Below, one piece after another: positions 2,144-35,842 of a stretch of 35,842 nt of DNA. This stretch comes from Candidatus Cybelea sp. (GTDB lineage Bacteria; Vulcanimicrobiota; Vulcanimicrobiia; Vulcanimicrobiales; Vulcanimicrobiaceae). The number at the start of each line of letters is the position of its first letter. Positions within the stretch are counted from its first letter, which is position 1. The stretch spans positions 1 through 35,842 of the forward strand of contig DATDIA010000203.1 in the NCBI GenBank assembly GCA_036521295.1, given 5' to 3'. The notes beneath the pieces were generated by a model. The model was not told where the DNA came from, did no database searches, and saw nothing but the letters and a program-made list of their open reading frames with translations. The position numbers and the translations under genes are program-made.

Positions 2144-5100
2144 ATGAGTTCACATCGAACCCTCCGTCACGCGGTCGTCGCCGCGATGATCATCGGCGCA
2201 TTCATCTGCCAGGGAACATGGGCACTGGCAGGTGTCACCGGTAACATCGCGGGTACGATCAAGGACTCGAGCGGCGCGCCAATTGCCGGCGTACAAGTGC
2301 AGGCAGTTGCAGCCTCGGAGAACCGGACCGCGACGACGGATGCGGGAGGTCATTTCGTTATCCTCTCGCTGAACCCGGATACCTACACGCTCAGCCTGAG
2401 CCGAGCGGGGTACCAGGGTATTTCCTATCCAGGCGTTGTGGTCTTTGCGGACCAAACGCAAAACGTTTCCTACACGATGACCAAGGCGCTGCGCACGATT
2501 GCGCACGTGACGTCGCAAGCCGGCACCTCGCTCGTCAAGTCGGGCGTTGGCAGCGACCTCTATAGCGTCAACAGCAGCCAGGCTGCTGCTGCAGCGGCGC
2601 TGGGCGGAGGCGGCAATCTGAACAACGCCTATTCGGCAATGGCCTCGGTGCCTGGCGTGCAGACGTCCCAAGGCGGCATCGGCTGGGACTTCAACGCCGC
2701 ATACGTCCGCGGACAAAACTCGTACTATACCGGCTTCGAATATGACGGCATTCCGATTAACCGCTCATTCGACAATTACAACGCCGGGACGGAATCGAGC
2801 CTGGGCCTGCAGGAGCTGCAAGTCTACACGGGCGGGGGTCCGTCCTCGGTCGCTTCGGCCGGCACGGCGGGCTTCATCAACCAAGTCATCAAGACCGGCA
2901 CCTTCCCGGGTTTCGCCACGGCGAACCTCGGCATCGCGACGCCGAACTACTACCATCAATCTCAGGTTGAAATCGGCGGCTCGACGCCCGACCGCACCTT
3001 TAGCTACTACATCGGGATCCTGGGCTACAACCAAACCTATCGCTTCTTCGACAACAGCAACGGCGCCGGCTATATGACGCCGGGCGGCCCGTTGTCCGGC
3101 GACGTGCTGGGGTTTGGCACCGGCTATGGTTTCGGCAGCTTCCAGTACCTTGGAATTGCGAGCACATGTACCTGGACGTGCCAGGGCGTTAAGCCGATGT
3201 GTCCTCTCCTCAGTGCCGGGCCTTCGAAGTTCACCTACCCCGCGCAGGGGTGCTGGCAGTACTACAGCGGCCTCGCCGCCACGCCGTTCGCGGTCAGCGA
3301 TCGCGAGAACGTGATCAACCTTCACATGGGCATTCCCAAGCGCAACGGGCTTCGGGACGACGTTCAGGTCATGTGGAGCGGATCCGCGCTCAACAACTAT
3401 GGTTACAACAGTCCCGACGACATGGGACCGGGCGGCAACCAGTTCATCTACTCGCAGTACAATACGCTCGCCAGGGCGCCGGTCTGCGGTCCGGACACGA
3501 TCGCACCTGGATTGACGGTCAACGGCTGCAATAACCCAGGGAACTTCGGAGGTGTGCCGTCCTGCGGCATCTCGTCTAATCCCTTCGGGAACTGCGGCCA
3601 GATCATAGCGACGCAGTCGGCCTTCAAGTGCGGCGTCTCACCGCCAAGCTTCCCGTCGCTGGGCTGTGGGTTCACCTACGTGCCGTATGCAGACAATGTC
3701 GCGTATAACGTCCCGTTCGGCACCGCAATCGCCAAGAGCATGGCCTCGATAAGACCCCCAAGCGTCTACATGGCTCCGAACACGCCAGCACATGCGTTCG
3801 GCGCCCCGCTTCCGTTTAACAGCAACGCACAAAATGTCAATCAGAACGATGCCGGGATCGCGAAGATCCAGTACACCTACGCGTTGAGCCAATCAGCGTA
3901 TCTGCGCGCCTACGCGTATAGTTTCTACTCCGACTGGTTTTTGAACTCGCCGTCCTTCGGCTCGTTCGACGAGCTCGGGCCGGCCTTCCCCAATTCCGCC
4001 CAGTATCAGCTCATCACCCACACCTCGGGCGGCGCGCTCGATTTCCAGGATCAGCTCAACGACCAAAATTTGGTCAGCCTGGATGGAAACTATACGACCG
4101 CGGGCGTGATTCGCTTCAACAACTCTTCTGCGTATTACGGATGCGCGCCGGGCTCGGCGTTCTTTCCCAATGCCTGCTCTCCGATCGGCTACATGTCGTC
4201 AGCCGGCGGCAAATTCACGTGCTACGATCCCACGACGGGGAAAGCGCAGGTCTGTCTCAACTCTAGCTATTACAACGTCGCGACGAAGAGCACGGTCTCT
4301 CCGACCTGGACCGCCGATGCGGCTTCCGGTCCCACGGCTTTCGCCGCCGCGAACACTCCGGCCGGGAGGGCTCGAGCAACCTGGGATAGCCTCTGGAGTG
4401 GAAACGCCACCGGGTCATATAACGCCGTCCGGCCGAGGTTCGTGAATGCCGCGCTGCAAGATCAGTTCCGCCCCAACGACAAACTGCTGATCAACGCCTC
4501 GATCCGGTACGACAACTTCACGTACGTTCTGCCGGACTCGGTGACCCCTGCCACGTCGTTTTACGCCAGCCAGAGCGCGAACTACACCTGCGTTCAAGCC
4601 AAGACCAATCAGGTGCTGACGCAACCGTTGCCGCCGGGCGTACCGCCTCCGGCGGGCGCCCAATATGTCGTGGGCGACTGCAACGCGGCAGCGGCCGCGC
4701 TCTTTCCGGCCGGACCGCACACCGGTTGGGTCCATCCCAACGGTAAGACCCAAGACGGCGTTGCGGCACCGAACTTCACCGCGAGCTCGCCGAGTTCGTA
4801 CACGCTCGACTACTGGGAGCCGCGTTTCTCGGCAACCTACACCGTGAGTCCGGACACCGTGATCCGGGCATCGGCGGGTCGCTACACGCAGCCTCCGATC
4901 TCCGCGTCGGTTCAATACCTCAGCTCATCGGGTGACGATCGCTCGGTTTGGAACAACACGATGAACCTCGGGTTCTATTCGCCCTTCCATCCGATTCCGG
5001 GAATCTCGTCTGGCCAGTACGATCTCTCGTTGGAACAGCACTTCCGCGGGACCGACATGAGCTTTAAGCTCACGCCGTTCTACACCTGGGTTTCGAACTG

Positions 5101-6214
5101 GCAGCAGCAGACCTTCATCGGCTCGAACTTCGTGACGCAAGTTCCGGTCGGCGTGAATCGCAACGAAGGCGTCGAGTTCCAGTTCAACAAGGGTGACTTC
5201 ACTCGCAACGGGCTCTCGGGGCTCCTGGCGTTCACCTACACCGACTCGAAGGTGATGTTCCAGAACATTCCTACCTCAGGGGGCGGCGTTATTCCGAACA
5301 CCACGACTACGCTCAATCAGGTGATTACGGCGTATAACCAGCTTACCAAGGCGGGCGGCGGCAGCCCCTGCTACCAGGACCTTCCAACGGGCTCGGTGGG
5401 CGTTCCGTGTTCGAAACACAACTCACCTTCGGGTGTCGACACGATCCTCAACCCATACTACAATCAACCCGAGCAGGGTCTGCTCAATCCGAGTGGCTGG
5501 TACAACCCGTACACGACCGCCATCGCACCGAGTCTCAGCGGTGCGCTCAACAGCTACATCTCGCCGTACGCTTCGTCCTTGGTTCTCAACTGGCGCCAAA
5601 ACAAGCTCGCAATCACGCCGAGCTTCAACTTCCAGACCGGCGGCTTTTATGGAAGCCCGCTCGACACGACCGGTCTCGATCCAAGGGCCTGCACGCAAAA
5701 CTCGAGGGCAGCCGGCATCACGAAGCTCTCGCCGAAGACCAATCCGCTTCAATGCAACTACCTCTCGGTCAATGCCCCCGGTCTGGGCCAGTTCGGCTAC
5801 CTCTACATTCCAGATCCGCAGACCGGAACGTTCTTGTTCGGAAACTACGAGCAACCGAGCTCGATCGTCGGCAACCTGCAGGTTTCCTACGATGTCAGTC
5901 CGCGGATCAGGCTGACCGTTCTTGGAGCCAACCTCTTCCACACGTGCTTCGGCGGTACGCCTGCAGCCTGGACGGCTGCGGCTCCGCCAAGTCCCGTGTT
6001 CTGTGGCTACGCTCCGGCCGGCGGCCCGCTCAACAGCACGATCTATCCGGCCAACTTCTACAACGGCACCGGCATCAACGACTTCAAAGCTAATGGAGCT
6101 CGGACGCCGGCCGCCTTCCAGCAAAGCTACACGCCCCGCGGCGCAAGCACTGGCGCGATCGGCGCTGCCGTGCAACCGATCAACGTCTACTTCAACGCAC
6201 AGATTAGGATCTAA
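2144..6214 (+). CDS. Giant TonB-dependent-receptor-like outer-membrane protein with an N-terminal carboxypeptidase-regulatory-like domain
   Basis: 1356 aa. Signal peptide: MSSHRTLRHAVVAAMIIGAFICQGTWALA. CarboxypepD_reg-like segment: GTIKDSSGAPIAGVQVQA...TDAGGHFVILSLNPDTYTLSLSRAGYQ. Plug-like segment: ASVPGVQT...AYVRGQ...YDGIPIN. A long Gly/Asn/Tyr/Ser-rich beta-barrel-like remainder follows. A GAGGG RBS sits 9 nt upstream of the ATG. Confidence 0.75.
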   Translation: MSSHRTLRHAVVAAMIIGAFICQGTWALAGVTGNIAGTIKDSSGAPIAGVQVQAVAASENRTATTDAGGHFVILSLNPDTYTLSLSRAGYQGISYPGVVVFADQTQNVSYTMTKALRTIAHVTSQAGTSLVKSGVGSDLYSVNSSQAAAAAALGGGGNLNNAYSAMASVPGVQTSQGGIGWDFNAAYVRGQNSYYTGFEYDGIPINRSFDNYNAGTESSLGLQELQVYTGGGPSSVASAGTAGFINQVIKTGTFPGFATANLGIATPNYYHQSQVEIGGSTPDRTFSYYIGILGYNQTYRFFDNSNGAGYMTPGGPLSGDVLGFGTGYGFGSFQYLGIASTCTWTCQGVKPMCPLLSAGPSKFTYPAQGCWQYYSGLAATPFAVSDRENVINLHMGIPKRNGLRDDVQVMWSGSALNNYGYNSPDDMGPGGNQFIYSQYNTLARAPVCGPDTIAPGLTVNGCNNPGNFGGVPSCGISSNPFGNCGQIIATQSAFKCGVSPPSFPSLGCGFTYVPYADNVAYNVPFGTAIAKSMASIRPPSVYMAPNTPAHAFGAPLPFNSNAQNVNQNDAGIAKIQYTYALSQSAYLRAYAYSFYSDWFLNSPSFGSFDELGPAFPNSAQYQLITHTSGGALDFQDQLNDQNLVSLDGNYTTAGVIRFNNSSAYYGCAPGSAFFPNACSPIGYMSSAGGKFTCYDPTTGKAQVCLNSSYYNVATKSTVSPTWTADAASGPTAFAAANTPAGRARATWDSLWSGNATGSYNAVRPRFVNAALQDQFRPNDKLLINASIRYDNFTYVLPDSVTPATSFYASQSANYTCVQAKTNQVLTQPLPPGVPPPAGAQYVVGDCNAAAAALFPAGPHTGWVHPNGKTQDGVAAPNFTASSPSSYTLDYWEPRFSATYTVSPDTVIRASAGRYTQPPISASVQYLSSSGDDRSVWNNTMNLGFYSPFHPIPGISSGQYDLSLEQHFRGTDMSFKLTPFYTWVSNWQQQTFIGSNFVTQVPVGVNRNEGVEFQFNKGDFTRNGLSGLLAFTYTDSKVMFQNIPTSGGGVIPNTTTTLNQVITAYNQLTKAGGGSPCYQDLPTGSVGVPCSKHNSPSGVDTILNPYYNQPEQGLLNPSGWYNPYTTAIAPSLSGALNSYISPYASSLVLNWRQNKLAITPSFNFQTGGFYGSPLDTTGLDPRACTQNSRAAGITKLSPKTNPLQCNYLSVNAPGLGQFGYLYIPDPQTGTFLFGNYEQPSSIVGNLQVSYDVSPRIRLTVLGANLFHTCFGGTPAAWTAAAPPSPVFCGYAPAGGPLNSTIYPANFYNGTGINDFKANGARTPAAFQQSYTPRGASTGAIGAAVQPINVYFNAQIRI

Positions 6215-26984: not shown

Positions 26985-27203
26985 ATGTTCGATGTCGGCG
27001 AGTCTCTGCGTGATGCCTTTACCACGGCTCGCGCGCGTTTACACGACGGGCAAAGGTCGGTAGCCCTAGCCAACTCGGGCATCGGGATCGGCCGCTCCGC
27101 CGATGCGGCGATGGCCCAGACGGCGCAAGCGGCAATCTTTACCGAAGCGCTTCTCGCCGCGGAACGAGCACGCTTTGAGGAGATAAAGGCGGTCACAAAA
27201 TGA
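26985..27203 (+). CDS. Small FlgB-position protein (possible minimal proximal rod protein)
   Basis: 72 aa. It is the first gene of the operon, and its stop overlaps the flgC start (ATGA at 27200-27203). AGGA lies upstream. The MFD start is FlgB-like, but I cannot see the rod N-terminal ANN/TPG motif. The call is mainly positional. Confidence 0.4.
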   Translation: MFDVGESLRDAFTTARARLHDGQRSVALANSGIGIGRSADAAMAQTAQAAIFTEALLAAERARFEEIKAVTK

Positions 27204-27526
27204 ACATCGATATCCTCGATGCGGCCGCCAGCGGGATGGACGCGCAGCGCGCGGCCCTCGACGTGGCGGCCCGTAACGTTGCCGCCGCAGAAGCCGCGGG
27301 CCCGAACGCTGACTACGCACGGATGATTCCCATCTTTCGAATCGACGCCAACGACGATTCGCGCGTCGAATTTACCGGTACGCGCACCGAGGCCGGGACG
27401 AACGTCGACATTCTCACCGAGATGATTGCCGTGATGAATGCCTCGCGTGCGTACGAGTCTGACGCCTCGATCTTCGAGGTCGGCAAGAGACTAGCCGAAA
27501 AAACGATCGACTTGGAGCGGTTGTGA
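27200..27526 (+). CDS. flgC: Flagellar basal-body rod protein FlgC (short form)
   Basis: 108 aa. The N-terminus ILDAAASGMDAQRAALDVAARNVAAAEA resembles IFDIAGSALSAQ..RLNV.A.NLANA. The C-terminus TNVDILTEMIAVMNASRAYESDASIFEVGKRLAEKTIDL matches the rod C-terminal heptad motif. Confidence 0.8.
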   Translation: MNIDILDAAASGMDAQRAALDVAARNVAAAEAAGPNADYARMIPIFRIDANDDSRVEFTGTRTEAGTNVDILTEMIAVMNASRAYESDASIFEVGKRLAEKTIDLERL

Positions 27527-27789
27527 GGGTCGAGCCGCTTATCCCCGACGCTCCGGCGCCCCCGCCGCAACCCAGCGGTGACGCAGCGGCATTTGCGCGC
27601 GCGCTCGATGCACTCGGCGGCGTGCTTGCCGGTGCAGCGCAGGCCGAAGATAATTTCGCATACGGTAGAGGCACGTTGCAAGATGCGATCTACGAACGCG
27701 CGCAGGCGGACGTGGCACTCTCCGTGGCAACGGCGACGGCGCAGCGCATCGCGCAGGCCGCGCAATCCGTGCTTAACATGCAAGTGTAG
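27523..27789 (+). CDS. fliE: Flagellar hook-basal body complex protein FliE
   Basis: 88 aa. FARALDALGG...AEDNFAYGRGTLQDAIYERAQADVALSVATATAQRIAQAAQSVLNMQV, including the characteristic C-terminal MQV. The GTGA start overlaps the flgC stop. Confidence 0.8.
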   Translation: MRVEPLIPDAPAPPPQPSGDAAAFARALDALGGVLAGAAQAEDNFAYGRGTLQDAIYERAQADVALSVATATAQRIAQAAQSVLNMQV

Positions 27790-27791
27790 CC

Positions 27792-29264
27792 ATGAATGGC
27801 GTTGCCCCGCTGCTGACTCGGTGGAATACCTTACCGAGAGCGCCTCGCCTCGTGGTGAGCGCGGCAGTGCTCGCCTTAGTGACCATCGCAGCGGCAGCGG
27901 CAATCGTCGCGCATCCAGTTCGTACGCCGCTCTTTGCCGCTTCACTCCATCCCGAGCAGCTTGCCGAGGTCGAAGAGCGGCTTGCCGCGTGGAACGTTCC
28001 CTTCACGCCTACTGCCGAGAACGTGATCGTAGATACGAGGCGCCGCAACGATCTCTTGCTGCGCCTCTCGCTCGCCGGCGTTCCACATCTGCATCTCGTA
28101 AATAGCGCAGAGGCGCTGGAAAGCATCGGCGTCCTGACCCCGCAAGCCGTCATCGAAGCGCAGACGCGAGCGGGTCTCGGCGGCGACATCGAAGCGGGGT
28201 TGCGCAGTATCGACGGCGTGGATGACGTACGAGTTATCGTTGCGCCGGCAAAGGCACCGGAATTCGCCGACGAAACCACGCACGACGCCTCTGCCTCAGT
28301 GCGGCTGGAGCTTCGCGGCGGCGCGCGGCTTTCGCGCGAAGCGATTGCCGGCATCCGCGCATTTGTCGCGGCAAGCGTCCCCGAACTCCTGCCGGCACGG
28401 GTGACGATTCTCGACGATCGCGGTGTCGCGTTGGGCGACGACACTGCCGGTGCCGACGAGGCCGCCGACCTCCAGCGCTCGCTGCAGTCCGCACTCGATT
28501 CCGCTTTCGGTGACGAAGCGACGATCGTCCGGGTTCGCGCGGAATACGAAGTTGGGCAAACCTCCGAGCACGACGTGCGCCGCGCCCCGATCGCTGTCGC
28601 GGCGATCAGGCGCTTGCGGCGCAGCGAGAGCTACGACGGAGGCGGCAAACGCTATCGCAGAGTCGAAGAAGGCGATGATCGCGGCAGCCAAACGCACGAG
28701 TCGCTCGCGCAAACCCCGGCGGGCGCGCTCAAGCGCCTTTCGACGGCGATCTTCGTCGATCAAAGCCGCGCGCTCGATGTAGCGAAGGTTCGCGAACTCG
28801 CGGGCGCTACGCTCGGCTACGATTCGCGCCGTGGTGACACGCTCGCCGTCGAGGCCGTGGACTTTCACCGAGAGCTCCCGGTACGTAAGGACCCCTGGTG
28901 GCTGCTCTACGGCGCAATCGTGCCGCTCGCACCGGCGCTCATTTTGGCGATCGGGCTCGTCGCTTGCGTGCGGATTGCCGTACCCTCGGTCGCCGCGCTG
29001 GTGCAATCGTTCATCGAGCGCGTCGTCGTCGAGCGCGCCTCGAAAGCCGCCGCGGGTTTTCCGCCGGCGCGTGTGCGCAGTATGCTCGAGCAAGAACCGC
29101 CACATGCCGCGGCGGCAATCATCAGCGCGCTGCCGGCTGCGACCGCCGCGGCAGTCCTGGACCTCTATCCGCCACACGAACGCGAGGCGATCGTTCGCCG
29201 AATGCAGCGGTCTGTGGCACCCCTGCTCTCTGACGCGCACGAGTTGTTGCGTCGTCATGTCTGA
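27792..29264 (+). CDS. fliF: Flagellar MS-ring protein FliF with a FliG-N-like C-terminal cytoplasmic extension
   Basis: 490 aa. N-terminal TM: LVVSAAVLALVTIAAAAAIV. YscJ/FliF region: LAEVEERLAAWNVPFT...IVDTRRRNDLLLRLSLAGVP...DIEAGLRSIDGVDDVRVIVA. Second TM: WWLLYGAIVPLAPALILAIGLVACV. The roughly 105-aa cytoplasmic tail contains HAAAAIISALPAATAAAVLDLYPPHEREAIVRRM. Confidence 0.85.
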   Translation: MNGVAPLLTRWNTLPRAPRLVVSAAVLALVTIAAAAAIVAHPVRTPLFAASLHPEQLAEVEERLAAWNVPFTPTAENVIVDTRRRNDLLLRLSLAGVPHLHLVNSAEALESIGVLTPQAVIEAQTRAGLGGDIEAGLRSIDGVDDVRVIVAPAKAPEFADETTHDASASVRLELRGGARLSREAIAGIRAFVAASVPELLPARVTILDDRGVALGDDTAGADEAADLQRSLQSALDSAFGDEATIVRVRAEYEVGQTSEHDVRRAPIAVAAIRRLRRSESYDGGGKRYRRVEEGDDRGSQTHESLAQTPAGALKRLSTAIFVDQSRALDVAKVRELAGATLGYDSRRGDTLAVEAVDFHRELPVRKDPWWLLYGAIVPLAPALILAIGLVACVRIAVPSVAALVQSFIERVVVERASKAAAGFPPARVRSMLEQEPPHAAAAIISALPAATAAAVLDLYPPHEREAIVRRMQRSVAPLLSDAHELLRRHV

Positions 29265-29727
29265 CAACTTCGTTCCGCTCGCCTCATTCTTGCGTCCCGT
29301 CGCGCAGAAACCGGTGGTGGAACCGCCTCCGCCGGCAGAGGGGCCGACTGCGGACCCGTGCGATGACTATAACGAAACGCTTCGCGCTGCGCGGCGTTTT
29401 CGTGCAGGGCTCAGCGATGCACTCGAAACCGCCGTCGAGCAGATGTTGCCAAAGATCGCGAAGGAGGTGCTCGCACGCGAGCTGCAGCTCGCCGATGCCG
29501 ACGTTGCCGCGATTCTCTCGGCCGCGCTCGATCGGTTCGCCGGCGATACGGTGCTTTGCGTTCGCGCGCACCCTCGCGACTGGGCTGCACTGGCCGGTTT
29601 TGAGCTCGAACGGGTTGCCGATGCTTCGCTACAGCCGGGGGATGTTCGTCTGGACCTTCGTAGTGGCACGATCGATTTGACGCTCGCCGCGCGCCTCGAT
29701 GCAGCTCTGGCGGCGTGTTCGGCGTGA
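29257..29727 (+). CDS. fliH: FliH/SctL-like export ATPase regulator (short)
   Basis: 156 aa from the ATG at 29257, overlapping the fliF stop by 8 nt. FliH-like C-terminal half: MLPKIAKEVLARELQLADADVAAILSAALDRF...VLCVRAHPRDWAAL...VADASLQPGDVRLDLRSGTIDLTLAARLDAAL. It sits immediately upstream of fliI. Confidence 0.65.
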   Translation: MSDNFVPLASFLRPVAQKPVVEPPPPAEGPTADPCDDYNETLRAARRFRAGLSDALETAVEQMLPKIAKEVLARELQLADADVAAILSAALDRFAGDTVLCVRAHPRDWAALAGFELERVADASLQPGDVRLDLRSGTIDLTLAARLDAALAACSA

Positions 29728-30770
29728 ACGCTTCGCAGAGGCTCGCACTCGGCGCTTGCGCGCTCGGACGCGCAATCGACGCGCACGGTTCGCCACTCGA
29801 CTGTGGGCCGCTTTTGCAAGGGCGTAACGTCACATTGGACCTGCGTGCTCCCCGACCCAGCGATCGGGTGCCGATTGCGACCCCGCTGCCGACCGGAATA
29901 CGCGTCGTCGATGGGTTGCTCACCATCGGTCGCGGCGCCCGCATCGGAATTTTCGGCGCACCCGGGGCAGGCAAGACCACCCTGATCGAAGCGGTCGTCG
30001 CGGGCTGCGCTGCCGACGCAATCGTCATCGCACTCGTCGGTGAACGTGGGCGAGAAGCGCAATGCTGGATTGCGCGGCGCGACGATCGGACGACGGTCAT
30101 TTGCGCCACCAGCGATCGGCCGCCGCAGGAGCGGCTTCTCGCGGCACGAGTTGCCGTGGTGCATGCCGGTGCGCTTCGCGAACGCGGATTGCACGTGCTG
30201 CTCGTCATCGATAGCTTGGCACGCTTTGCGTACGCATCGCGCGAGATCGCCGTGGCCGCCGGCGAGAGCGTCGGGCGAGGCGGGTATCCACCGAGCGTCT
30301 TCGCTCATCTGGCTCGACTCGTCGAAGTTTCCGGGGCGCTCCAGAATGGCTCGATCACATTGATCGCGAGCGTCATAAACGATGGGGACGACCGCGATCC
30401 GGTCAGCGAGGGTGCGCGCTCGATTCTGGACGGGCACATCGCGCTTTCGACGCGCCTCGCCGAAGCAGGGCGATTTCCGGCCGTGGACGTACCGGCGAGT
30501 ACGAGCCGAACGATGGAAGCGGTCGTTAATCACTCTCATCTGAGCGCCGCGCGCAAGGTAGCGCGAGCTCTGGCCCTGCTCGACCGTATCGAAGACGCCC
30601 GCGCGCTCGGCATAGATCCGGCCGATCGCGCGGCGCGTATCGCCATTGCCGCCGAGACCCGTCTCGAAGCCTTCCTACGTCAAGGACGCAGCGCCTCCGA
30701 CTACGAGGCCACCTTGTCACAGTTGGCGCAACTCGCAATTCTCTTGGAAGGCGACGGTGGAGATCGTTAG
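29715..30770 (+). CDS. fliI: Flagellar/T3SS export ATPase FliI lacking the N-terminal domain
   Basis: 351 aa. Walker A: GAPGAGKTT. LVGERGREA is present. Walker B: HVLLVIDSLARFA. PPSVF and GSITLIASV...DDRDPVSEGARSILDGHIALS are also present. Alignment from memory to Salmonella FliI starts near residue 100. The upstream sequence is occupied by the fliH-like gene. Confidence 0.88.
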   Translation: MFGVNASQRLALGACALGRAIDAHGSPLDCGPLLQGRNVTLDLRAPRPSDRVPIATPLPTGIRVVDGLLTIGRGARIGIFGAPGAGKTTLIEAVVAGCAADAIVIALVGERGREAQCWIARRDDRTTVICATSDRPPQERLLAARVAVVHAGALRERGLHVLLVIDSLARFAYASREIAVAAGESVGRGGYPPSVFAHLARLVEVSGALQNGSITLIASVINDGDDRDPVSEGARSILDGHIALSTRLAEAGRFPAVDVPASTSRTMEAVVNHSHLSAARKVARALALLDRIEDARALGIDPADRAARIAIAAETRLEAFLRQGRSASDYEATLSQLAQLAILLEGDGGDR

Positions 30771-31360: not shown

Positions 31361-31918
31361 ATGATGACGCAGCAGCTCGAAGTTAGTATTCTCGCGGCGC
31401 CGTTGGCAGCGATCGACCGCCGAACACTGTCAGAGGCATGGTATTCGGCGTTGCGCCTGGTGTGCCAACCTCGCCAAACTTTAGCGATTGCACCTCTTGC
31501 GCGATCGCCAGTCGCGCAGCGCCTTCGCGCGTACACACAAAACGTCCAGGAGCGATCCTGGCGCGACCGCGTCGAGATGGGCCGTTTTCACACCTTGCCT
31601 CCCAAACCGAGCACGATGTGCGGCGACGAAGTAAGGGCAAACATCTCAGGCCGGCGCTGCGCGCTCGCGCGCCGGATCGAGCGAGCGTTCGCCCAACCAA
31701 ACTCGCATGCGAAGCGTGCGACATTTTCGATGGGACGCGGAAACGCACGCGTGCATATCATCCTTCAAACGAAAGGAGAATGCACGGCACTGCTCGCGAT
31801 ATGCCGCCCGGAGTTGCGTCTCGTCGTCGCGCGCGCTCTGGCACAAGCTCGTCTCGCGCTAGCGGCGCGCGGCATCGGCATCGAACTGCGCGGGCCGGCA
31901 GTAGCTGAATGTTCCTGA
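31361..31918 (+). CDS. Hypothetical protein with a FliK/SctP-like (hook-length / substrate-switch) C-terminal pattern
   Basis: 185 aa. The C-terminal 60 aa (ARVHIILQTKGECTALLAICRPELRLVVARALAQARLALAARGIGIEL) fit the Flg_hook pattern: beta strand, G, beta strand, then a helix ending L..L...G. It occupies the fliK position of the fla/che order. This call is inference only. Confidence 0.4.
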   Translation: MMTQQLEVSILAAPLAAIDRRTLSEAWYSALRLVCQPRQTLAIAPLARSPVAQRLRAYTQNVQERSWRDRVEMGRFHTLPPKPSTMCGDEVRANISGRRCALARRIERAFAQPNSHAKRATFSMGRGNARVHIILQTKGECTALLAICRPELRLVVARALAQARLALAARGIGIELRGPAVAECS

Positions 31919-32631
31919 GTACAAGCCTGAGCGCCGCACTCGATCGCATCGCCGAGCGAGCCGCCGACGTAAGGCGGGCGTACACACCGGCTGCGGTTCC
32001 GCAGGAAGACGACGTCGCAGCCCCCACAACGATCTCAGACTTTACCCTCGATCCGCTTGCCGTGAGCGCGCCGGACGGCGTCTACTTCGCCACGAACGAC
32101 GATCGGGGAAGAACGACGTACACGCGCGACGGCTCCTTTGCGCTTCGTGGCGGCAAGCTCGTCGATGCTGATGGCCGCCCCGTCTTGGGCGAGCGCAACC
32201 AGTCCGGGATACTCGGCGAGCTTGCCGTCGATCCGGTGGACGAAGTACTGGGACGAATCCACGACGCCGGCATCGAACGCGACGGCAGCTTCGCGTACCG
32301 TCGCGACGTTTTGGATCCACGCAGCGGAAGGCGAGAATCGCAACGAGTCGTTGTTGGACGGATTGCTCTTGCGCGTTTTCCCGCTGGGACGAGACTCGAG
32401 ACGAGTGATGGGAGTCATTGCATCGCCCCTGCGGGTGTCGTCGCGGAGAATGGTTTTGCGACGGAGCGAGGCTTTGCACCGCTGGTGCCGATGCATCGCG
32501 AGCGCAGCCGAGTCGACGTCGATGAAAGTCTCATCCGGCTCAAAGAGGCGTATCTTGCCTTTGACGCGCTGCAGGCAGCCGAGGCCGCCCGAGCGCACCT
32601 CGGCAAGACCGCGATGGATCTCTTGAAATGA
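31909..32631 (+). CDS. Flagellar rod/hook-family protein (FlgE/FlgF/FlgG-like), divergent
   Basis: 240 aa. YTRDGSFALRGGKLVDADGRPVLG matches the conserved rod/hook core (YTR.G.F......L....G..vlG). GRIALARFP is present. The C-terminus SRVDVDESLIRLKEAYLAFDALQAAEAARAHLGKTAMDL matches the SNVD...E...y.a motif. The N-terminal ANxxTxGFK motif is degenerate. Confidence 0.7.
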   Translation: MFLSTSLSAALDRIAERAADVRRAYTPAAVPQEDDVAAPTTISDFTLDPLAVSAPDGVYFATNDDRGRTTYTRDGSFALRGGKLVDADGRPVLGERNQSGILGELAVDPVDEVLGRIHDAGIERDGSFAYRRDVLDPRSGRRESQRVVVGRIALARFPAGTRLETSDGSHCIAPAGVVAENGFATERGFAPLVPMHRERSRVDVDESLIRLKEAYLAFDALQAAEAARAHLGKTAMDLLK

Positions 32632-33422
32632 AAGCACTTGGTTTCGTCTTGCCGTTCAAGGACGGCTCTGAGGCCACGGGAACAAAGCGCGTTCGGCGTG
32701 CCCTCTTTGAGGCGCGCTCCTCGCTGCCCATTAGCGCCGCTTGCGTCGTTGCAAACGGTATACGCGAGACGTTGAGTTCGTTGCTGCGCGGATCCGTTGC
32801 GGTGCGCCTCTTCGAGCCGAGGATCCCAGGGCCGCACGCGTGGTCGGCAATTCTGCGCGATGCGCGACTCTATCGGGTGCGAGGAAACGTTGCGGATGCG
32901 GCCCTTGTCCTGCGAGCGTCCGACGCGGTTGCCCTCGCCGCCGCGCTTTTCGGAGAATCGTCCGGCGCCGTCGAGCGTGCGCTTTCTCCGATTGAATGCG
33001 ACGTCTTGGATCGCATGATCAACGCAATCGCTGCGAACCTCGGTGCGGTCTGCGGAGCGCGCGAAGGCTATCCCGTCGAGCGCGTTGTGGCGGTCGACGG
33101 TCTCGTGACCTACTTCGAGCTCCTGATTGAGGAGCCGGTTTCGTTTCGAATCGGCATCGCGCTCTCGCGCGAACCTGCGTCCGAAACCCGCGGCTCTCTC
33201 GAAGCCAGGCACCTTGCGCAAGTCAGACTCACCGCTCTCGCCACCCTCAACCTAGGCAAGATAGACGCAGCGGCCGTTTCGCGACTCGTCGTTGGTGCGA
33301 CCATTCCGGTAGAGCCCGCAGAATTGCATCGATGTAGCCTTATGGCGCACGGACGCAGACTCGCTCGCGGCAGCTGCGGGGTCCGCGATGGACGCTATGC
33401 ATTCTATGCCGACGCGACGTGA
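32628..33422 (+). CDS. fliM: FliM/SctQ-like switch/sorting-platform protein (short)
   Basis: 264 aa. The middle region has LSPIECDVLDRMINAIAANL. A C-terminal SpoA-like segment is present: LTALATLNLGKIDAAAVSRLVVGATIPVEPAELHRCSLMAHGRRLARGSCGVRDGRYAF. The ATGA start overlaps the preceding gene. It lies immediately upstream of fliN. Confidence 0.6.
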   Translation: MKALGFVLPFKDGSEATGTKRVRRALFEARSSLPISAACVVANGIRETLSSLLRGSVAVRLFEPRIPGPHAWSAILRDARLYRVRGNVADAALVLRASDAVALAAALFGESSGAVERALSPIECDVLDRMINAIAANLGAVCGAREGYPVERVVAVDGLVTYFELLIEEPVSFRIGIALSREPASETRGSLEARHLAQVRLTALATLNLGKIDAAAVSRLVVGATIPVEPAELHRCSLMAHGRRLARGSCGVRDGRYAFYADAT

Positions 33423-33431
33423 ACGCCTACG

Positions 33432-33710
33432 ATGGCGATGAGCTCGAAAGAATCGGCGGAGTTCGAGAATATTGGCTTGCTCATGCACGTGCCGCTGGAT
33501 CTCACGGTCGAGTTGGGAAGCGCTCAGCTTTCGGTGGCCGAGGTATTGAAGCTCGGCACGGGTTCGATCGTCGAACTCGATCGCCCCGTAAATCATCCCG
33601 TCGACCTGCTCGTTAACCGTAGACTGATTGCGCGCGGCGAGATCGTCGCAGTTGCGGAGAGCTTTGCGTTTCGCGTTACCGAGCTGCTTCCGCTCCAGAC
33701 AAGCTCGTAA
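33432..33710 (+). CDS. fliN: Flagellar motor switch protein FliN (SpoA domain only)
   Basis: 92 aa. LLMHVPLDLTVELGSAQLSVAEVLKLGTGSIVELDRPVNHPVDLLVNRRLIARGEIVAVAESFAFRVTEL is a clear SpoA/FliN signature. Confidence 0.88.
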   Translation: MAMSSKESAEFENIGLLMHVPLDLTVELGSAQLSVAEVLKLGTGSIVELDRPVNHPVDLLVNRRLIARGEIVAVAESFAFRVTELLPLQTSS

Positions 33711-33714
33711 CTCT

Positions 33715-34374
33715 ATGCCCACCGATTTCTTCGCGGGCACGGTCGGCCGGCACGCAACGGTGCCACTCGATCTCCTCGTGGCGCTGACGATGCTCTCGGT
33801 CGTGCCGCTTCTGCTGGTCATGTGCACGTCGTTCGTACGAATCGTCGTCGTGCTCTCACTCGTGCGTTCGGCAATCGGCGCCTCAGCGCTTCCGCCCAAC
33901 GCCGTGCTCACGGGGCTCGCACTCGTACTGACTTTGGTCGTCATGGCGCCTACCGCGCAGCGAATCAGACACGACGCTATCGATCCCTATTCGCGAGGCG
34001 CAATTTCCCCTTCGCAGGCGATTCGACGAGCAATCGCGCCGCTTCGCTCGTTCATGCTCCGCCAGACGCGCGCGGCGGATGTGGCGCTATTCGAGCGAGT
34101 CGCACGGCGCGCCCCCGAGCCGGGCCAGCGCGCGCCCATTACCGTCGTGATTCCCGCTTTCGTCGTGGGTGAGCTGCGCAGCGGCTTCGCTATCGGATTT
34201 GCGCTGTATCTGCCGTTCGTCGCCATCGACTTGGCGGTTGCAGCCATGCTGATGGGGCTTGGCATGATGATGCTCAGCCCACCCGTCGTCTCGTTGCCGG
34301 TGAAGCTGCTGCTCTTCGTGATGGTCGACGGCTGGGCGATGCTTTGCGGAGGCGTTGCAGCAAGCTTCCGATAA
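33715..34374 (+). CDS. fliP: Flagellar export-gate protein FliP
   Basis: 219 aa from the ATG at 33715. TSFVRIVVVLSLVRSAIGASALPPNAVLTGLALVLTLVVMAP, AFVVGELRSGFAIGFALYLPFVAIDLAVAAMLMGLGMMMLSP and LLLFVMVDGW are present. Confidence 0.92.
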   Translation: MPTDFFAGTVGRHATVPLDLLVALTMLSVVPLLLVMCTSFVRIVVVLSLVRSAIGASALPPNAVLTGLALVLTLVVMAPTAQRIRHDAIDPYSRGAISPSQAIRRAIAPLRSFMLRQTRAADVALFERVARRAPEPGQRAPITVVIPAFVVGELRSGFAIGFALYLPFVAIDLAVAAMLMGLGMMMLSPPVVSLPVKLLLFVMVDGWAMLCGGVAASFR

Positions 34375-34383
34375 CTCAGATAT

Positions 34384-35295
34384 ATGCGCATCGGAGATGC
34401 CATCGCGACACAGCGGCCGTTTTTCTCGTTCGAGTTCTTCCCACCGAAGGACGACGAGGGTTCCCGCCGCTTGTTTGCCGCAATCGCGGCGTTGCAACCG
34501 CTGCGGCCGGCCTTCGTTTCCATCACCTACGGTGCCGGCGGCTCGACGCGCGCCCGTACGGTTGCGCTCGCTAAAGAAATTCAGCATCAGATCGGTCTGA
34601 CGGTGGTTGCGCACGTCACGTGCATCGGCGCGGATCGGGGCGAGTTGCGAGAACTCTTCGACGACTTGGCGAGGGCCGGCATCGAGAACGTGCTTGCATT
34701 GCGAGGCGACGCCCCGCCGGGTGCGTCGTTCTCACCGACGCCCGGAGGCTTTGCCCACGCCAGCGAGCTGATCGCCATGTTGCGGCGAAACTACGACTTC
34801 TGCATCGGAGCGGCGTGCTATCCCGAAAAGCATCCCGAAGCGGCGACCTTCGAAGACGACCTCCTCCATCTCAAGCTCAAAGCCGAAGCGGGCGCGGATT
34901 TTCTCGTCTCGCAGCTTTTTTTCGACAACGCACACTTCTTCGAATTCGAACGCCGCGCCCGAATCGCCGGTATCGAGCTCCCGATTCTCCCCGGCCTGAT
35001 GCCGATTACAAACTTTGCCCAGATCAAGCGGTTCGTCGCCATGTGCGGCGCGAGCATTCCACCGAAGCTCCTCGTGGAATTGGAGGCGCGCAAGGGCGAC
35101 GATAAGGCGGTCGAAGATCTCGGCGTCGCATATGCGTCGATGCAGGCTCTCGGACTGGTGCAGGGAGGCCTGCCCGGGATTCACTTTTACACGTTGAACC
35201 GCTCGCCCGCGACGCGTGCTATTGTCTCGTCGCTCTTGGCGGCAAGTGCCTGGCGTCCCGCATTGCGAACACGCAGTGCCATAACAACTCGGTAA
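34384..35295 (+). CDS. metF: 5,10-methylenetetrahydrofolate reductase
   Basis: 303 aa. FSFEFFPPK, SITYGAGGSTR, HVTCIG, VLALRGD and DFLVSQLFFD are present. It starts 9 nt after the fliP stop, on the same strand. Confidence 0.9.
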   Translation: MRIGDAIATQRPFFSFEFFPPKDDEGSRRLFAAIAALQPLRPAFVSITYGAGGSTRARTVALAKEIQHQIGLTVVAHVTCIGADRGELRELFDDLARAGIENVLALRGDAPPGASFSPTPGGFAHASELIAMLRRNYDFCIGAACYPEKHPEAATFEDDLLHLKLKAEAGADFLVSQLFFDNAHFFEFERRARIAGIELPILPGLMPITNFAQIKRFVAMCGASIPPKLLVELEARKGDDKAVEDLGVAYASMQALGLVQGGLPGIHFYTLNRSPATRAIVSSLLAASAWRPALRTRSAITTR

Positions 35296-35326: not shown

Positions 35327-35599
35327 GTGGTGGAGATCCTCGACGGATTGCTTCACGACGCGCTCCTTACCACCGCAACGATCGCCTTGCCGATGCTCGG
35401 CGTCGCAGCGCTTGTCGGTACTGCGATTGCCGTCGTCCAAGCGGCGACGCAGGTCCAAGAACAGACCCTGACGCTGCTTCCCAAGATCGTCGCTATTGGA
35501 TTGATGATCGCGTTGTTCGGCGGCCCCGCTATGCACTTGCTCGCTGGACTCTTCGATCGCGCGCTGGCTGCGATTCCTGCGATCGAGACGGGATGGTAA
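35327..35599 (+). CDS. fliQ: Flagellar export-gate protein FliQ
   Basis: 90 aa. IALPMLGVAALVGTAIAVVQAATQVQEQTLTLLPKIVAIGL is present. The GTG start is at 35327 or 35330. Confidence 0.9.
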   Translation: MVEILDGLLHDALLTTATIALPMLGVAALVGTAIAVVQAATQVQEQTLTLLPKIVAIGLMIALFGGPAMHLLAGLFDRALAAIPAIETGW

Positions 35600-35842
35600 C
35601 CGGTCTGCTCGCCTTTGCCCGTTGCGCCGGCTTCGTCTTTCGCGCGCCGGGATTCTCGCATCCGAGCGTGCCGTCTCCACTACGAGCCGGCCTGGCCGTC
35701 GCGCTTTCGATCGCAATGGCCCCGAACGCTACGCGGGCACCGCACAATGTCGACGTGGTGATGCTCGTCATTGCAATCCTGGGGGAATTCTTGCTCGGCA
35801 GCGCAATCGGCATGGCCGCCTCGCTGATCTACGACGCAGCCC
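35593..35842 (+). CDS. fliR: Flagellar export-gate protein FliR, 3' end cut by the window edge
   Basis: I translated this by hand, as it is not in the ORF track: MVTGLLAFARCAGFVFRAPGFSHPSVPSPLRAGLAVALSIAMAP...LGEFLLGSAIGMAASLIYDAA. The ATG at 35593 overlaps the fliQ stop (ATGGTAA). Confidence 0.8.
   Translation, partial: MVTGLLAFARCAGFVFRAPGFSHPSVPSPLRAGLAVALSIAMAPNATRAPHNVDVVMLVIAILGEFLLGSAIGMAASLIYDAA

Follow-up and report, generated by a model that had tools for sequence, protein, structure and literature searches.

Contig DATDIA010000203.1 of Candidatus Cybelea sp. (assembly GCA_036521295.1), an organism filed under the family Vulcanimicrobiaceae at NCBI, was analyzed from position 1 to position 35,842 of its forward strand, a stretch of 35,842 nucleotides (nt; hereafter the window) that has a G+C content of 60-66%. 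Attention was given to fliI, the gene for the ATPase of a flagellar-type type III secretion system (T3SS), and to the fliH-like gene that directly precedes it, both being part of a conserved, reduced flagellar-type cluster of Eremiobacterota; the remainder of the window consists of housekeeping genes. The fliI product belongs to the FliI/SctN family but has no N-terminal beta-barrel. Homologs of this architecture are called short forms below, and those that keep the barrel long forms. The metagenome-assembled genomes (MAGs) from which the homologs derive are labelled Candidatus Cybelea, Eremiobacteraeota or Vulcanimicrobiota.

The fliH-fliI region contains the following features, in which the amino acid (aa) numbers of motifs count from the 351-aa open reading frame (ORF) and the invariance of catalytic residues was judged across 18 short and long homologs.

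29257-29727, + strand: fliH-like gene, 156 aa, stator or tether of the export ATPase (PF02108)
29715-30770, + strand: barrel-less FliI/SctN-family ATPase, maximal ORF of 351 aa (from ORF, Pfam and fold)
29724-29727, + strand: GTGA, in which GTG 29724 of fliI overlaps the fliH stop TGA (29725-29727)
29742-29801, + strand: first conserved segment LALGACALGRAIDAHGSPLD, aa 10-29, aligning with about residues 110-129 of Salmonella FliI
29955-29981, + strand: Walker A (P-loop) GAPGAGKTT, aa 81-89; G81, G86 and K87 invariant
30039-30056, + strand: GERGRE, aa 109-114, with catalytic Glu110 and Arg111; invariant
30198-30230, + strand: Walker B LLVIDSLARFA, aa 162-172; D166 and S167 invariant
30498-30515, + strand: STSRTM, aa 262-267, with Arg265 as arginine finger; S262, S264 and R265 invariant
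30525-30731, + strand: C-terminal helical domain, aa 271-339; borderline in Pfam (T3SS_ATPase_C, 22.1 bits against a cut-off of 22.7)

Only two in-frame start codons, GTG 29715 and GTG 29724, lie ahead of the conserved core of fliI, and the nearest in-frame stop on the 5' side is TAG 29661. An initial annotation of this DNA had let the gene begin at GTG 29715; that codon does lie 13 nt before the fliH stop, as had been stated, but it merely opens the longest ORF. The real start is probably GTG 29724, which would give a product of 348 aa, because this codon is homologous to the start of all relatives, where it overlaps the fliH stop. Such an NTGA overlap between fliI and fliH was present in 27 related loci, with long as well as short forms, an arrangement that would be typical of translational coupling.

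Architecture and family placement of the short FliI

By sequence comparison and modelled fold, the fliI product consists of a Rossmann ATPase domain and a C-terminal helical domain only. Pfam recognized an ATP-synt_ab domain (PF00006) at aa 61-264 (E 1.4e-61) and found no N-terminal domain. In a phmmer search against PDB sequences, residue 3 of the product aligned with residue 103 of full-length Salmonella FliI (5b0o), and end-to-end alignments were obtained with the N-terminally truncated constructs EscN(103-446), YscN delta1-92, Spa47 delta1-79 and SsaN. The segment LALGACALGRAIDAHGSPLD corresponds to the linker and the first strands of the ATPase domain, which directly follow the barrel in the long relatives and in canonical enzymes. 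An AlphaFold2 model of the product (predicted local distance difference test score 92.8, predicted template modelling score 0.91) was superposed on FliI with template modelling (TM) scores, as TMq, of 0.91-0.92 and root-mean-square deviations of 1.5-1.8 Å; it contains helices at 273-345, and its structural alignment with FliI/EscN spans 344-352 columns and takes in the whole protein.

The NCBIfam models compared, namely TIGR01026 for the subfamily, TIGR02546 for SctN and TIGR03496-8 for the FliI clades, were matched only from position 68-96 to their ends, with scores of 301-333 bits that all remained below the cut-offs (300.8 against 379.5, 332.5 against 604.75, and 312.8 against 619.1). Despite this, the T3SS ATPase families were the best-scoring ones by far. 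An identity as F1, V1 or A1 ATPase was rejected, TIGR01039 (atpD) reaching 124 bits against a cut-off of 463 and the gene context being of the flagellar type. Among the features of the family, the Walker A/B domain, the catalytic Glu/Arg pair and arginine finger, the C-terminal helices and the neighboring fliH and export-gate genes were found; the N-terminal beta-barrel, the extreme N-terminal FliH/SctL-binding segment and scores above the curated cut-offs were not. By fold, the product is a FliI/SctN-type ATPase; it is filed as a truncated variant, not as an ordinary member, because the barrel and the FliH-binding segment are gone and the curated cut-offs were failed.

Glu110 and Arg111 are the equivalents of Glu206 and Arg207 of EscN, and the trans-acting role of Arg265 is taken from Arg366 of EscN, which is supplied by the neighboring subunit of the ring (PMC6367419); the surrounding STSRTM was aligned with ASISRAM of FliI. 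Catalysis is probably retained, because the Walker A and B residues, the Glu/Arg pair and the arginine finger are all invariant in the 18 homologs and the ratio of nonsynonymous to synonymous substitution rates (dN/dS) is 0.13-0.23. These results agree with the initial annotation, which had claimed that the whole N-terminal domain is missing, had aligned its beginning to about residue 100 of Salmonella FliI, and had described Walker A, ERGRE and Walker B as intact and catalysis as probably retained: the protein starts at about FliI residue 103, the motifs lie at the positions given there, and neither Pfam nor a reading of all frames revealed an N-terminal domain or a remnant of one.

Authenticity of the truncation

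Start codons are often ambiguous in high-GC genomes, and the window comes from a metagenome-type assembly, so a full-length fliI might be hidden by a wrongly chosen start, by faulty assembly or by a sequencing frameshift. Reading of the three frames of 29101-29850 showed that the frame of fliI is closed by the stop at 29661, that the other two frames are occupied by the fliH-like gene or full of stops, and that no barrel-like sequence is present; a frameshift or an upstream start was accordingly rejected. An N-domain profile made from 13 relatives, together with tblastn, returned nothing from the six frames of the window (best E ~0.9). When the same profile was applied to 290 kb around short genes, 0 of 17 short loci were matched (best E 0.17), whereas all 17 long loci were detected (E <= 2e-19), including four that had not been used in profile building.

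The junction (29446-29875) is spanned by contigs from three independent soil metagenome runs with zero indels. Of the 120 best homologs (66-95% identity), 119 have 338-365 aa, the exception being a 286-aa entry with 81% query coverage, and no fewer than 45 species-level genomes and over 110 protein clusters share the short architecture. The possibilities that the initial annotation had itself raised against its claim, a frameshift that hides a barrel, an assembly error and orthologs with a true start further upstream, thus found no counterpart in the data.

Origin by in-frame deletion

The nearest cluster representatives in a 50%-identity set are proteins of 407-430 aa with 48-60% identity, in which residues 71-82 correspond to residues 8-15 of the query. 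Their extra N-terminal domain follows the pattern MIARG.V..V.GG..........G..V...., and one of them, P0121, was aligned over aa 4-394 to EscN 38-436, oligomerization domain included. Such long forms (for example P0121, L014, L016 and L019) lie in the same cluster with the same NTGA start overlap; the barrel that remains in them measures about 70 aa (aligned with EscN 38-105), and their core is 50-64% identical to the short form. The first 25-35 residues of canonical FliI/SctN are gone even from the long forms, and with them the FliH-binding segment at the extreme N-terminus. Many short proteins open with M-I-A like the long ones and then continue directly with the linker (LALG or PLGTCALGRA). 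Because long and short forms share a start codon that overlaps the fliH stop, the short form is, by these alignments, derived through an internal deletion, clean and in frame, of about 66-72 codons, with the ancestral start kept.

Long forms change most rapidly in their N-domain (dN 0.49-0.78, compared with 0.30-0.45 for the core). As the long-form pairs are too divergent and their dS is saturated, the strength of selection on long and short forms is not comparable.

Distribution, number of losses and selection

The 14 short forms of a first tree made up one monophyletic group (bootstrap 100) inside the long forms, its sister being a Tumulicola long form. A motif scan of a genome collection added 91 species-level Eremiobacterota loci; 45 were classified as short and 34 as long, and 12 could not be assigned to either. 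A distance (neighbor-joining) tree calculated from 80 classified sequences and outgroups, with a weakly supported backbone, had a long-form root, a main short clade of 36 species and four further short lineages, which joined the main clade in 0, 0, 1 and 1 of 150 bootstraps, respectively; Fitch parsimony required a minimum of five barrel losses. At least two independent losses are firmly indicated, and up to five may tentatively be proposed.

The second short lineage consists of L028 (5959-7014) and P0392/L109 (259-1320), which come from different sources, have 351-353 aa and are 81% identical. Its junction differs (VIVSGRGSPSAPAAR-LPLGT), its nearest relatives are long forms of 410 aa, and it was joined to the Cybelea clade in 0 of 200 bootstraps. 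Short fliI genes are under purifying selection, with pairwise dN/dS of 0.13-0.23 within the short clade, at dS from 0.14 to 1.26, and of 0.15 in the second short lineage.

Eremiobacterota-type fliI genes were also carried by L162, L163 and L118 (labelled 'Candidatus Acidiferrales') and by L181 ('Verrucomicrobiia'), which are probably mis-binned or mislabelled; L162 contains the downstream part of the cluster, from the 3' end of fliF to fliP.

The FliH-like neighbor

The 156-aa product of the fliH-like gene was recognized by PF02108 (E 8.2e-9; score of 35.9 bits, gathering cut-off 24.1), and the NCBIfam FliH/SctL models scored far below their cut-offs. Its AlphaFold2 model shows the usual stalk fold, in which a single long helix (aa 34-75) is combined with a small alpha/beta C-terminal domain (C-domain). 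The best fold matches in Foldseek were V/A-ATPase subunit E and FliH of 5b0o (5b0o_E/F), with probabilities of 0.95-1.0 and low TM scores of 0.33-0.41; a profile of the protein gave no match to PDB sequences at E <= 1, so that subunit E and FliH were recovered by fold only. An N-terminal motif (F5, P7, L8, F11 and L12) is conserved, and pairwise dN/dS of fliH within the short clade is 0.18-0.65.

In the canonical system, both C-domains of FliH bind the N-domain of FliI, while Trp7 and Trp10 of FliH bind FliN and FlhA (PMC9751260). The domain targeted by canonical FliH is not present in the window's FliI, and the FliM-like and FliN proteins of the cluster are presumed to be the docking site of the FliH N-terminus. 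The initial annotation had offered two readings, altered ATPase-stator coupling or compensation by a short FliH-like protein. The former is supported: canonical coupling is impossible here because both FliH-binding regions lie in the missing domain (PMC9751260). The latter was rejected, since FliH measures about 150-178 aa whether or not the FliI of the lineage has a barrel, shows one C-terminal sequence pattern throughout, and has been neither enlarged nor altered in the short clade. For full-length FliH and the barrel-less FliI of the window's clade, three relationships are conceivable: a new interface, no more than loose co-localization, or translational coupling alone.

Fusions of FliH and FliI

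Two loci of a further short lineage, L156 (3518-4666) and L162 (reverse strand, 397-1569 when oriented), come from different projects and have no separate fliH. Directly after fliF, each contains a single ORF (382 and 390 aa, respectively) that combines a FliH N-terminus with the barrel-less ATPase core. The first ~50 residues represent the N-terminus of the FliH tether (DGFVSLADLL and DFTPLAVWL), the FliH profile matched aa 1-53 with i-E values of 7e-5 and 1e-5, and the two fusion proteins are 58% identical over 386 aa. L174, a member of the same group, has a separate FliH and a short FliI. Both the coiled coil and C-domain of FliH and the barrel of FliI can hence be lost while the tether peptide and the core stay together. 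This would fit a selection that maintains a catalytic core held at the machine, and it lends indirect support to the idea that, in the ancestor, FliH C-domain and FliI barrel acted as a single functional module.

In L009 (3167-4687), fliH and fliI are read as one 514-aa ORF through a one-base difference at the NTGA overlap; this fusion was set aside as an unreplicated single-base difference that was not seen among the 120 best FliH homologs.

The surrounding gene cluster

The cluster comprises about 14 genes, and its synteny is kept in 14 species-level genomes. The order is a 72-aa ORF, flgC, fliE, fliF, fliH, fliI, an SLT lytic transglycosylase gene and a gene for a 185-aa protein, followed by a FlgF-like gene, a FliM-like gene, fliN, fliP, metF, fliQ and fliR; in the relative L016, fliR is followed by flhB and flhA. 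Besides fliH and fliI, the following members were delimited in the window.

26985-27203, + strand: 72-aa ORF at the head of the cluster, without family match
27200-27526, + strand: rod gene flgC (Pfam/NCBIfam FlgC)
27523-27789, + strand: rod gene fliE (Pfam/NCBIfam FliE)
27792-29264, + strand: fliF, 490 aa (Pfam YscJ_FliF, YscJ_FliF_C and FliG_M)
31361-31918: conserved 185-aa cluster protein, without Pfam or NCBIfam match
32628-33422, + strand: fliM-like gene (Pfam FliMN_C, E 1.4e-3)
33432-33710, + strand: fliN (Pfam FliMN_C, E 7.5e-24)
33715-34374, + strand: fliP (Pfam FliP)
34384-35295, + strand: metF, methylenetetrahydrofolate reductase (Pfam MTHFR)
35327-35599, + strand: fliQ (Pfam Bac_export_3)
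35596 to the end of the window at 35842, + strand: fliR, start only (Pfam Bac_export_1)

The C-terminal part of FliF contains a FliG_M-like armadillo stretch (PF14841, aa 422-472, E 8.5e-7), in which LEQEPPHAAAAIISAL is similar to the EHPQ motif of FliG; the L016 ortholog (905-2371) has the same domains, FliG_M-like stretch included. No separate fliG, FliG torque domain, fliJ, motAB, hook or flagellin gene was found in the 35.8-kb window. The presence of the FliG_M tail on FliF and the lack of fliG, a torque domain, fliJ and motAB from the window suggest that the machine is non-rotary, with FliM/FliN docked directly on FliF. The cultured relative Vulcanimicrobium alpinus has neither flagella nor a flagellin gene (PMC9758169).

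The 72-aa ORF is kept in 12 of 14 related loci, L007 beginning too far downstream and L014 giving no match. In all relatives examined, long and short, metF lies between fliP and fliQ, within the export-gate operon. The C-terminal half of the 185-aa protein resembles, by eye only, the C-terminal (substrate-switch) domain of FliK. An extra gene of about 500 aa with Asp_protease_2 and gag-asp_proteas domains, not present in the window, sits between the SLT gene and the gene for this unknown protein in the long-form loci L015 (2183-3709) and L016 (4742-6220). Outside the cluster, the window encodes a TonB-dependent-receptor-like protein of 1356 aa (2144-6214) that bears a carboxypeptidase-regulatory domain at its N-terminus and fits a diderm envelope.

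A proposed working ring without the barrel, and its alternatives

It appears fairly probable that the barrel-less FliI, which is kept by selection, still forms a working ring, and that this reduced machine can do without the barrel and the canonical stator joint. Under this proposal, ATP hydrolysis would still take place at subunit interfaces, as is suggested by the invariance of all catalytic residues and, as the main argument for an oligomer, of the trans-acting arginine finger. Nucleotide-dependent rings might be formed through contacts of the ATPase domain and the C-domain, by analogy with the engineered YsaN delta83, which has been deprived of residues 1-83 and is still hexameric and has about one third of wild-type activity (PMC9493007). 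The barrel, and the joint between the FliH C-domain and the FliI N-domain, would be dispensable in the Vulcanimicrobiaceae system, probably since the extreme N-terminal FliH-binding segment had already been lost in the whole lineage and since the machine appears to be a non-rotary export apparatus. The ATPase core would have to remain at the export gate, presumably localized by the N-terminal peptide of FliH. A broader proposal, that the cluster encodes an undescribed non-rotary, flagellum-derived export machine without filament, whose ATPase module has been stripped stepwise, at first of the FliH-binding helix, later and repeatedly of the barrel, and last of the FliH stalk, with a tether peptide left on the core, is put forward tentatively as a possible but rather doubtful extension.

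Several observations weigh against a working barrel-less ring. Both oligomerization and ATP hydrolysis of the short form are predictions from conserved residues, and N-truncated EscN, Spa47, YscN and SsaN crystallize as monomers (PMC6367419). A full-length FliH is kept and constrained in the clade of the window, which is hard to reconcile with the loss of its partner, and the retained FliH C-domain is puzzling unless a new interface exists. There was no signal of compensating substitutions in the short clade, where eight fixed differences are scattered without N-terminal enrichment. Losses beyond two are tentative because the neighbor-joining backbone is weakly supported. No RNA run holding fliI was found. 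Lastly, the closest relative L001 (94% nt identity) differs from the window in its cluster: fliF carries two insertions of 1 nt each (window 28257 and 28783), the SLT gene has a deletion of 2 nt (window 30987), and a 1.2-kb deletion (window 31546-32761) has taken away the FlgF-like gene together with the last part of the unknown gene and the first part of the FliM-like gene. Should these lesions be genuine and not errors of long-read sequencing, at least one lineage can dispense with the system.

The L001 lesions are also among the points that would speak for a relic in decay, in which the whole cluster has become functionless and the truncated fliI represents early pseudogenization that has not yet produced stops. 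The absence of flagella and flagellin from V. alpinus (PMC9758169), the ability of flagellar export to run without FliH and FliI (PMC9751260) and the faster evolution of the long-form N-domain than of the core are in line with decay as well. Nevertheless, such a relic seems quite unlikely: at least 45 species-level genomes have an uninterrupted ORF, the catalytic residues are without exception invariant, low dN/dS values persist up to a dS of 1.26 and recur in the second short lineage, the synteny of about 14 genes is fully kept, and every deletion is in frame with the coupled start codon preserved. Moreover, frameshifts also occur in non-flagellar genes of the long-read MAG series that includes L001, such as the DUF3810 gene in L006, and the lesions of L001 may therefore be sequencing errors. 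An artefact that conceals a full-length gene can be regarded as refuted by the intact junction, the stops and the recurrence of the architecture described above, and retains practically no probability.

The barrel could also be supplied in trans, either by a separate protein encoded elsewhere or by the FliH C-domain acting as a crown, in a split architecture. The retention, translational coupling and purifying selection of fliH in the clade of the window would agree with this, as would the single ORF of L009, although that fusion has no counterpart among the 120 best FliH homologs. However, the profile that detects every long locus found nothing barrel-like in the window or around the 17 short genes (290 kb), the FliH of relatives with a barrel matches that of the short clade in length and C-terminal sequence, and the FliH C-domain is deleted in L156 and L162 and so cannot serve as an essential substitute crown there; a barrel in trans is consequently very unlikely. 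Alternatively, the protein may not form a gate-attached ring at all but act as a soluble monomer or small oligomer, for instance in chaperone release or unfolding, or as a low-turnover regulatory nucleotide-binding subunit. The monomeric crystals of the truncated constructs point in this direction, as do the loss of binding of an oligomer-specific chaperone upon deletion of the EscN N-domain (PMC6367419) and the lack of a gene for the central stalk, fliJ, in the cluster. Such a role is nonetheless judged unlikely, since the arginine finger, a residue whose action requires an adjoining subunit, is invariant, YsaN delta83 remains a partly active hexamer, and the fusion of the tether peptide to the core in L156 and L162 suggests that localization at the machine is still selected.

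Comparison with known systems

Salmonella FliI (2DPY, 5B0O) has the same Walker A/B motifs, catalytic Glu/Arg pair and arginine finger, and its gene likewise follows fliH directly and is clustered with fliF, fliE, flgC and fliN/P/Q/R; the window's FliI differs in having no equivalents of residues 1-102 (N-terminal helix and beta-barrel), and no fliJ adjoins its gene. The FliH of the window, shorter than the 235 aa of Salmonella FliH, shares the fold of one long helix and a C-terminal alpha/beta domain with FliH/SctL and with V/A-ATPase subunit E, in both of which the C-domain attaches to the barrel at the N-terminus of the catalytic subunit.

The closest analogs of the barrel-less FliI are laboratory constructs and not natural proteins. 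EscN(103-446), Spa47 delta1-79, YscN delta1-92, SsaN and YsaN delta83 have almost the same boundaries as the natural protein, residues 7-10 of which align with construct residues 2-5 (TMt 0.88-0.91); the part removed from EscN, residues 1-102, has been called its oligomerization domain (PMC6367419). Unlike these constructs, the natural short form has no second copy beside it in the cluster, and selection has preserved it in many species. No description of a natural T3SS ATPase without its N-terminal domain, or of the flagellar-type cluster of Eremiobacterota, was found in open-access papers and preprints.

Reduced flagellar export systems without filament exist as basal bodies in Buchnera aphidicola and as partial flagellar gene sets in Chlamydiota. 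To our knowledge, both keep a full-length FliI. As in these systems, a flagellar-type export apparatus is kept here in probably non-swimming organisms; in contrast to them, FliF bears a FliG_M-like tail and the ATPase module itself has been minimized. The gene sets of Chlamydiota have been documented (PMC12199754).

Implications

The N-domain of T3SS ATPases has been treated as the oligomerization domain and as the only docking site of FliH/SctL, and it is routinely cut to obtain monomeric crystals. The present findings indicate that this laboratory deletion has also arisen naturally, probably several times, within an otherwise conserved and selected machine, and that in one lineage a fused tether peptide took the place of the whole stator. 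They also point to a flagellar-type apparatus of reduced make-up, not reported in the literature searched, in a soil phylum that is widespread and has a single cultured member, which is without flagella. Although the hosts are uncultured, the natural series from long to barrel-less to tether-fused forms makes the roles of crown and stator testable; it bears on whether the crown is needed for ring formation, on what FliH spokes do beyond tethering and on the minimal ATPase complex of the export gate, and should be relevant to specialists in type III secretion and rotary ATPases. If an active crown-less ring is indeed formed at the gate, neither the crown nor the FliH spokes would be needed, and the minimal unit would be a tethered core of the Rossmann domain plus the C-domain.

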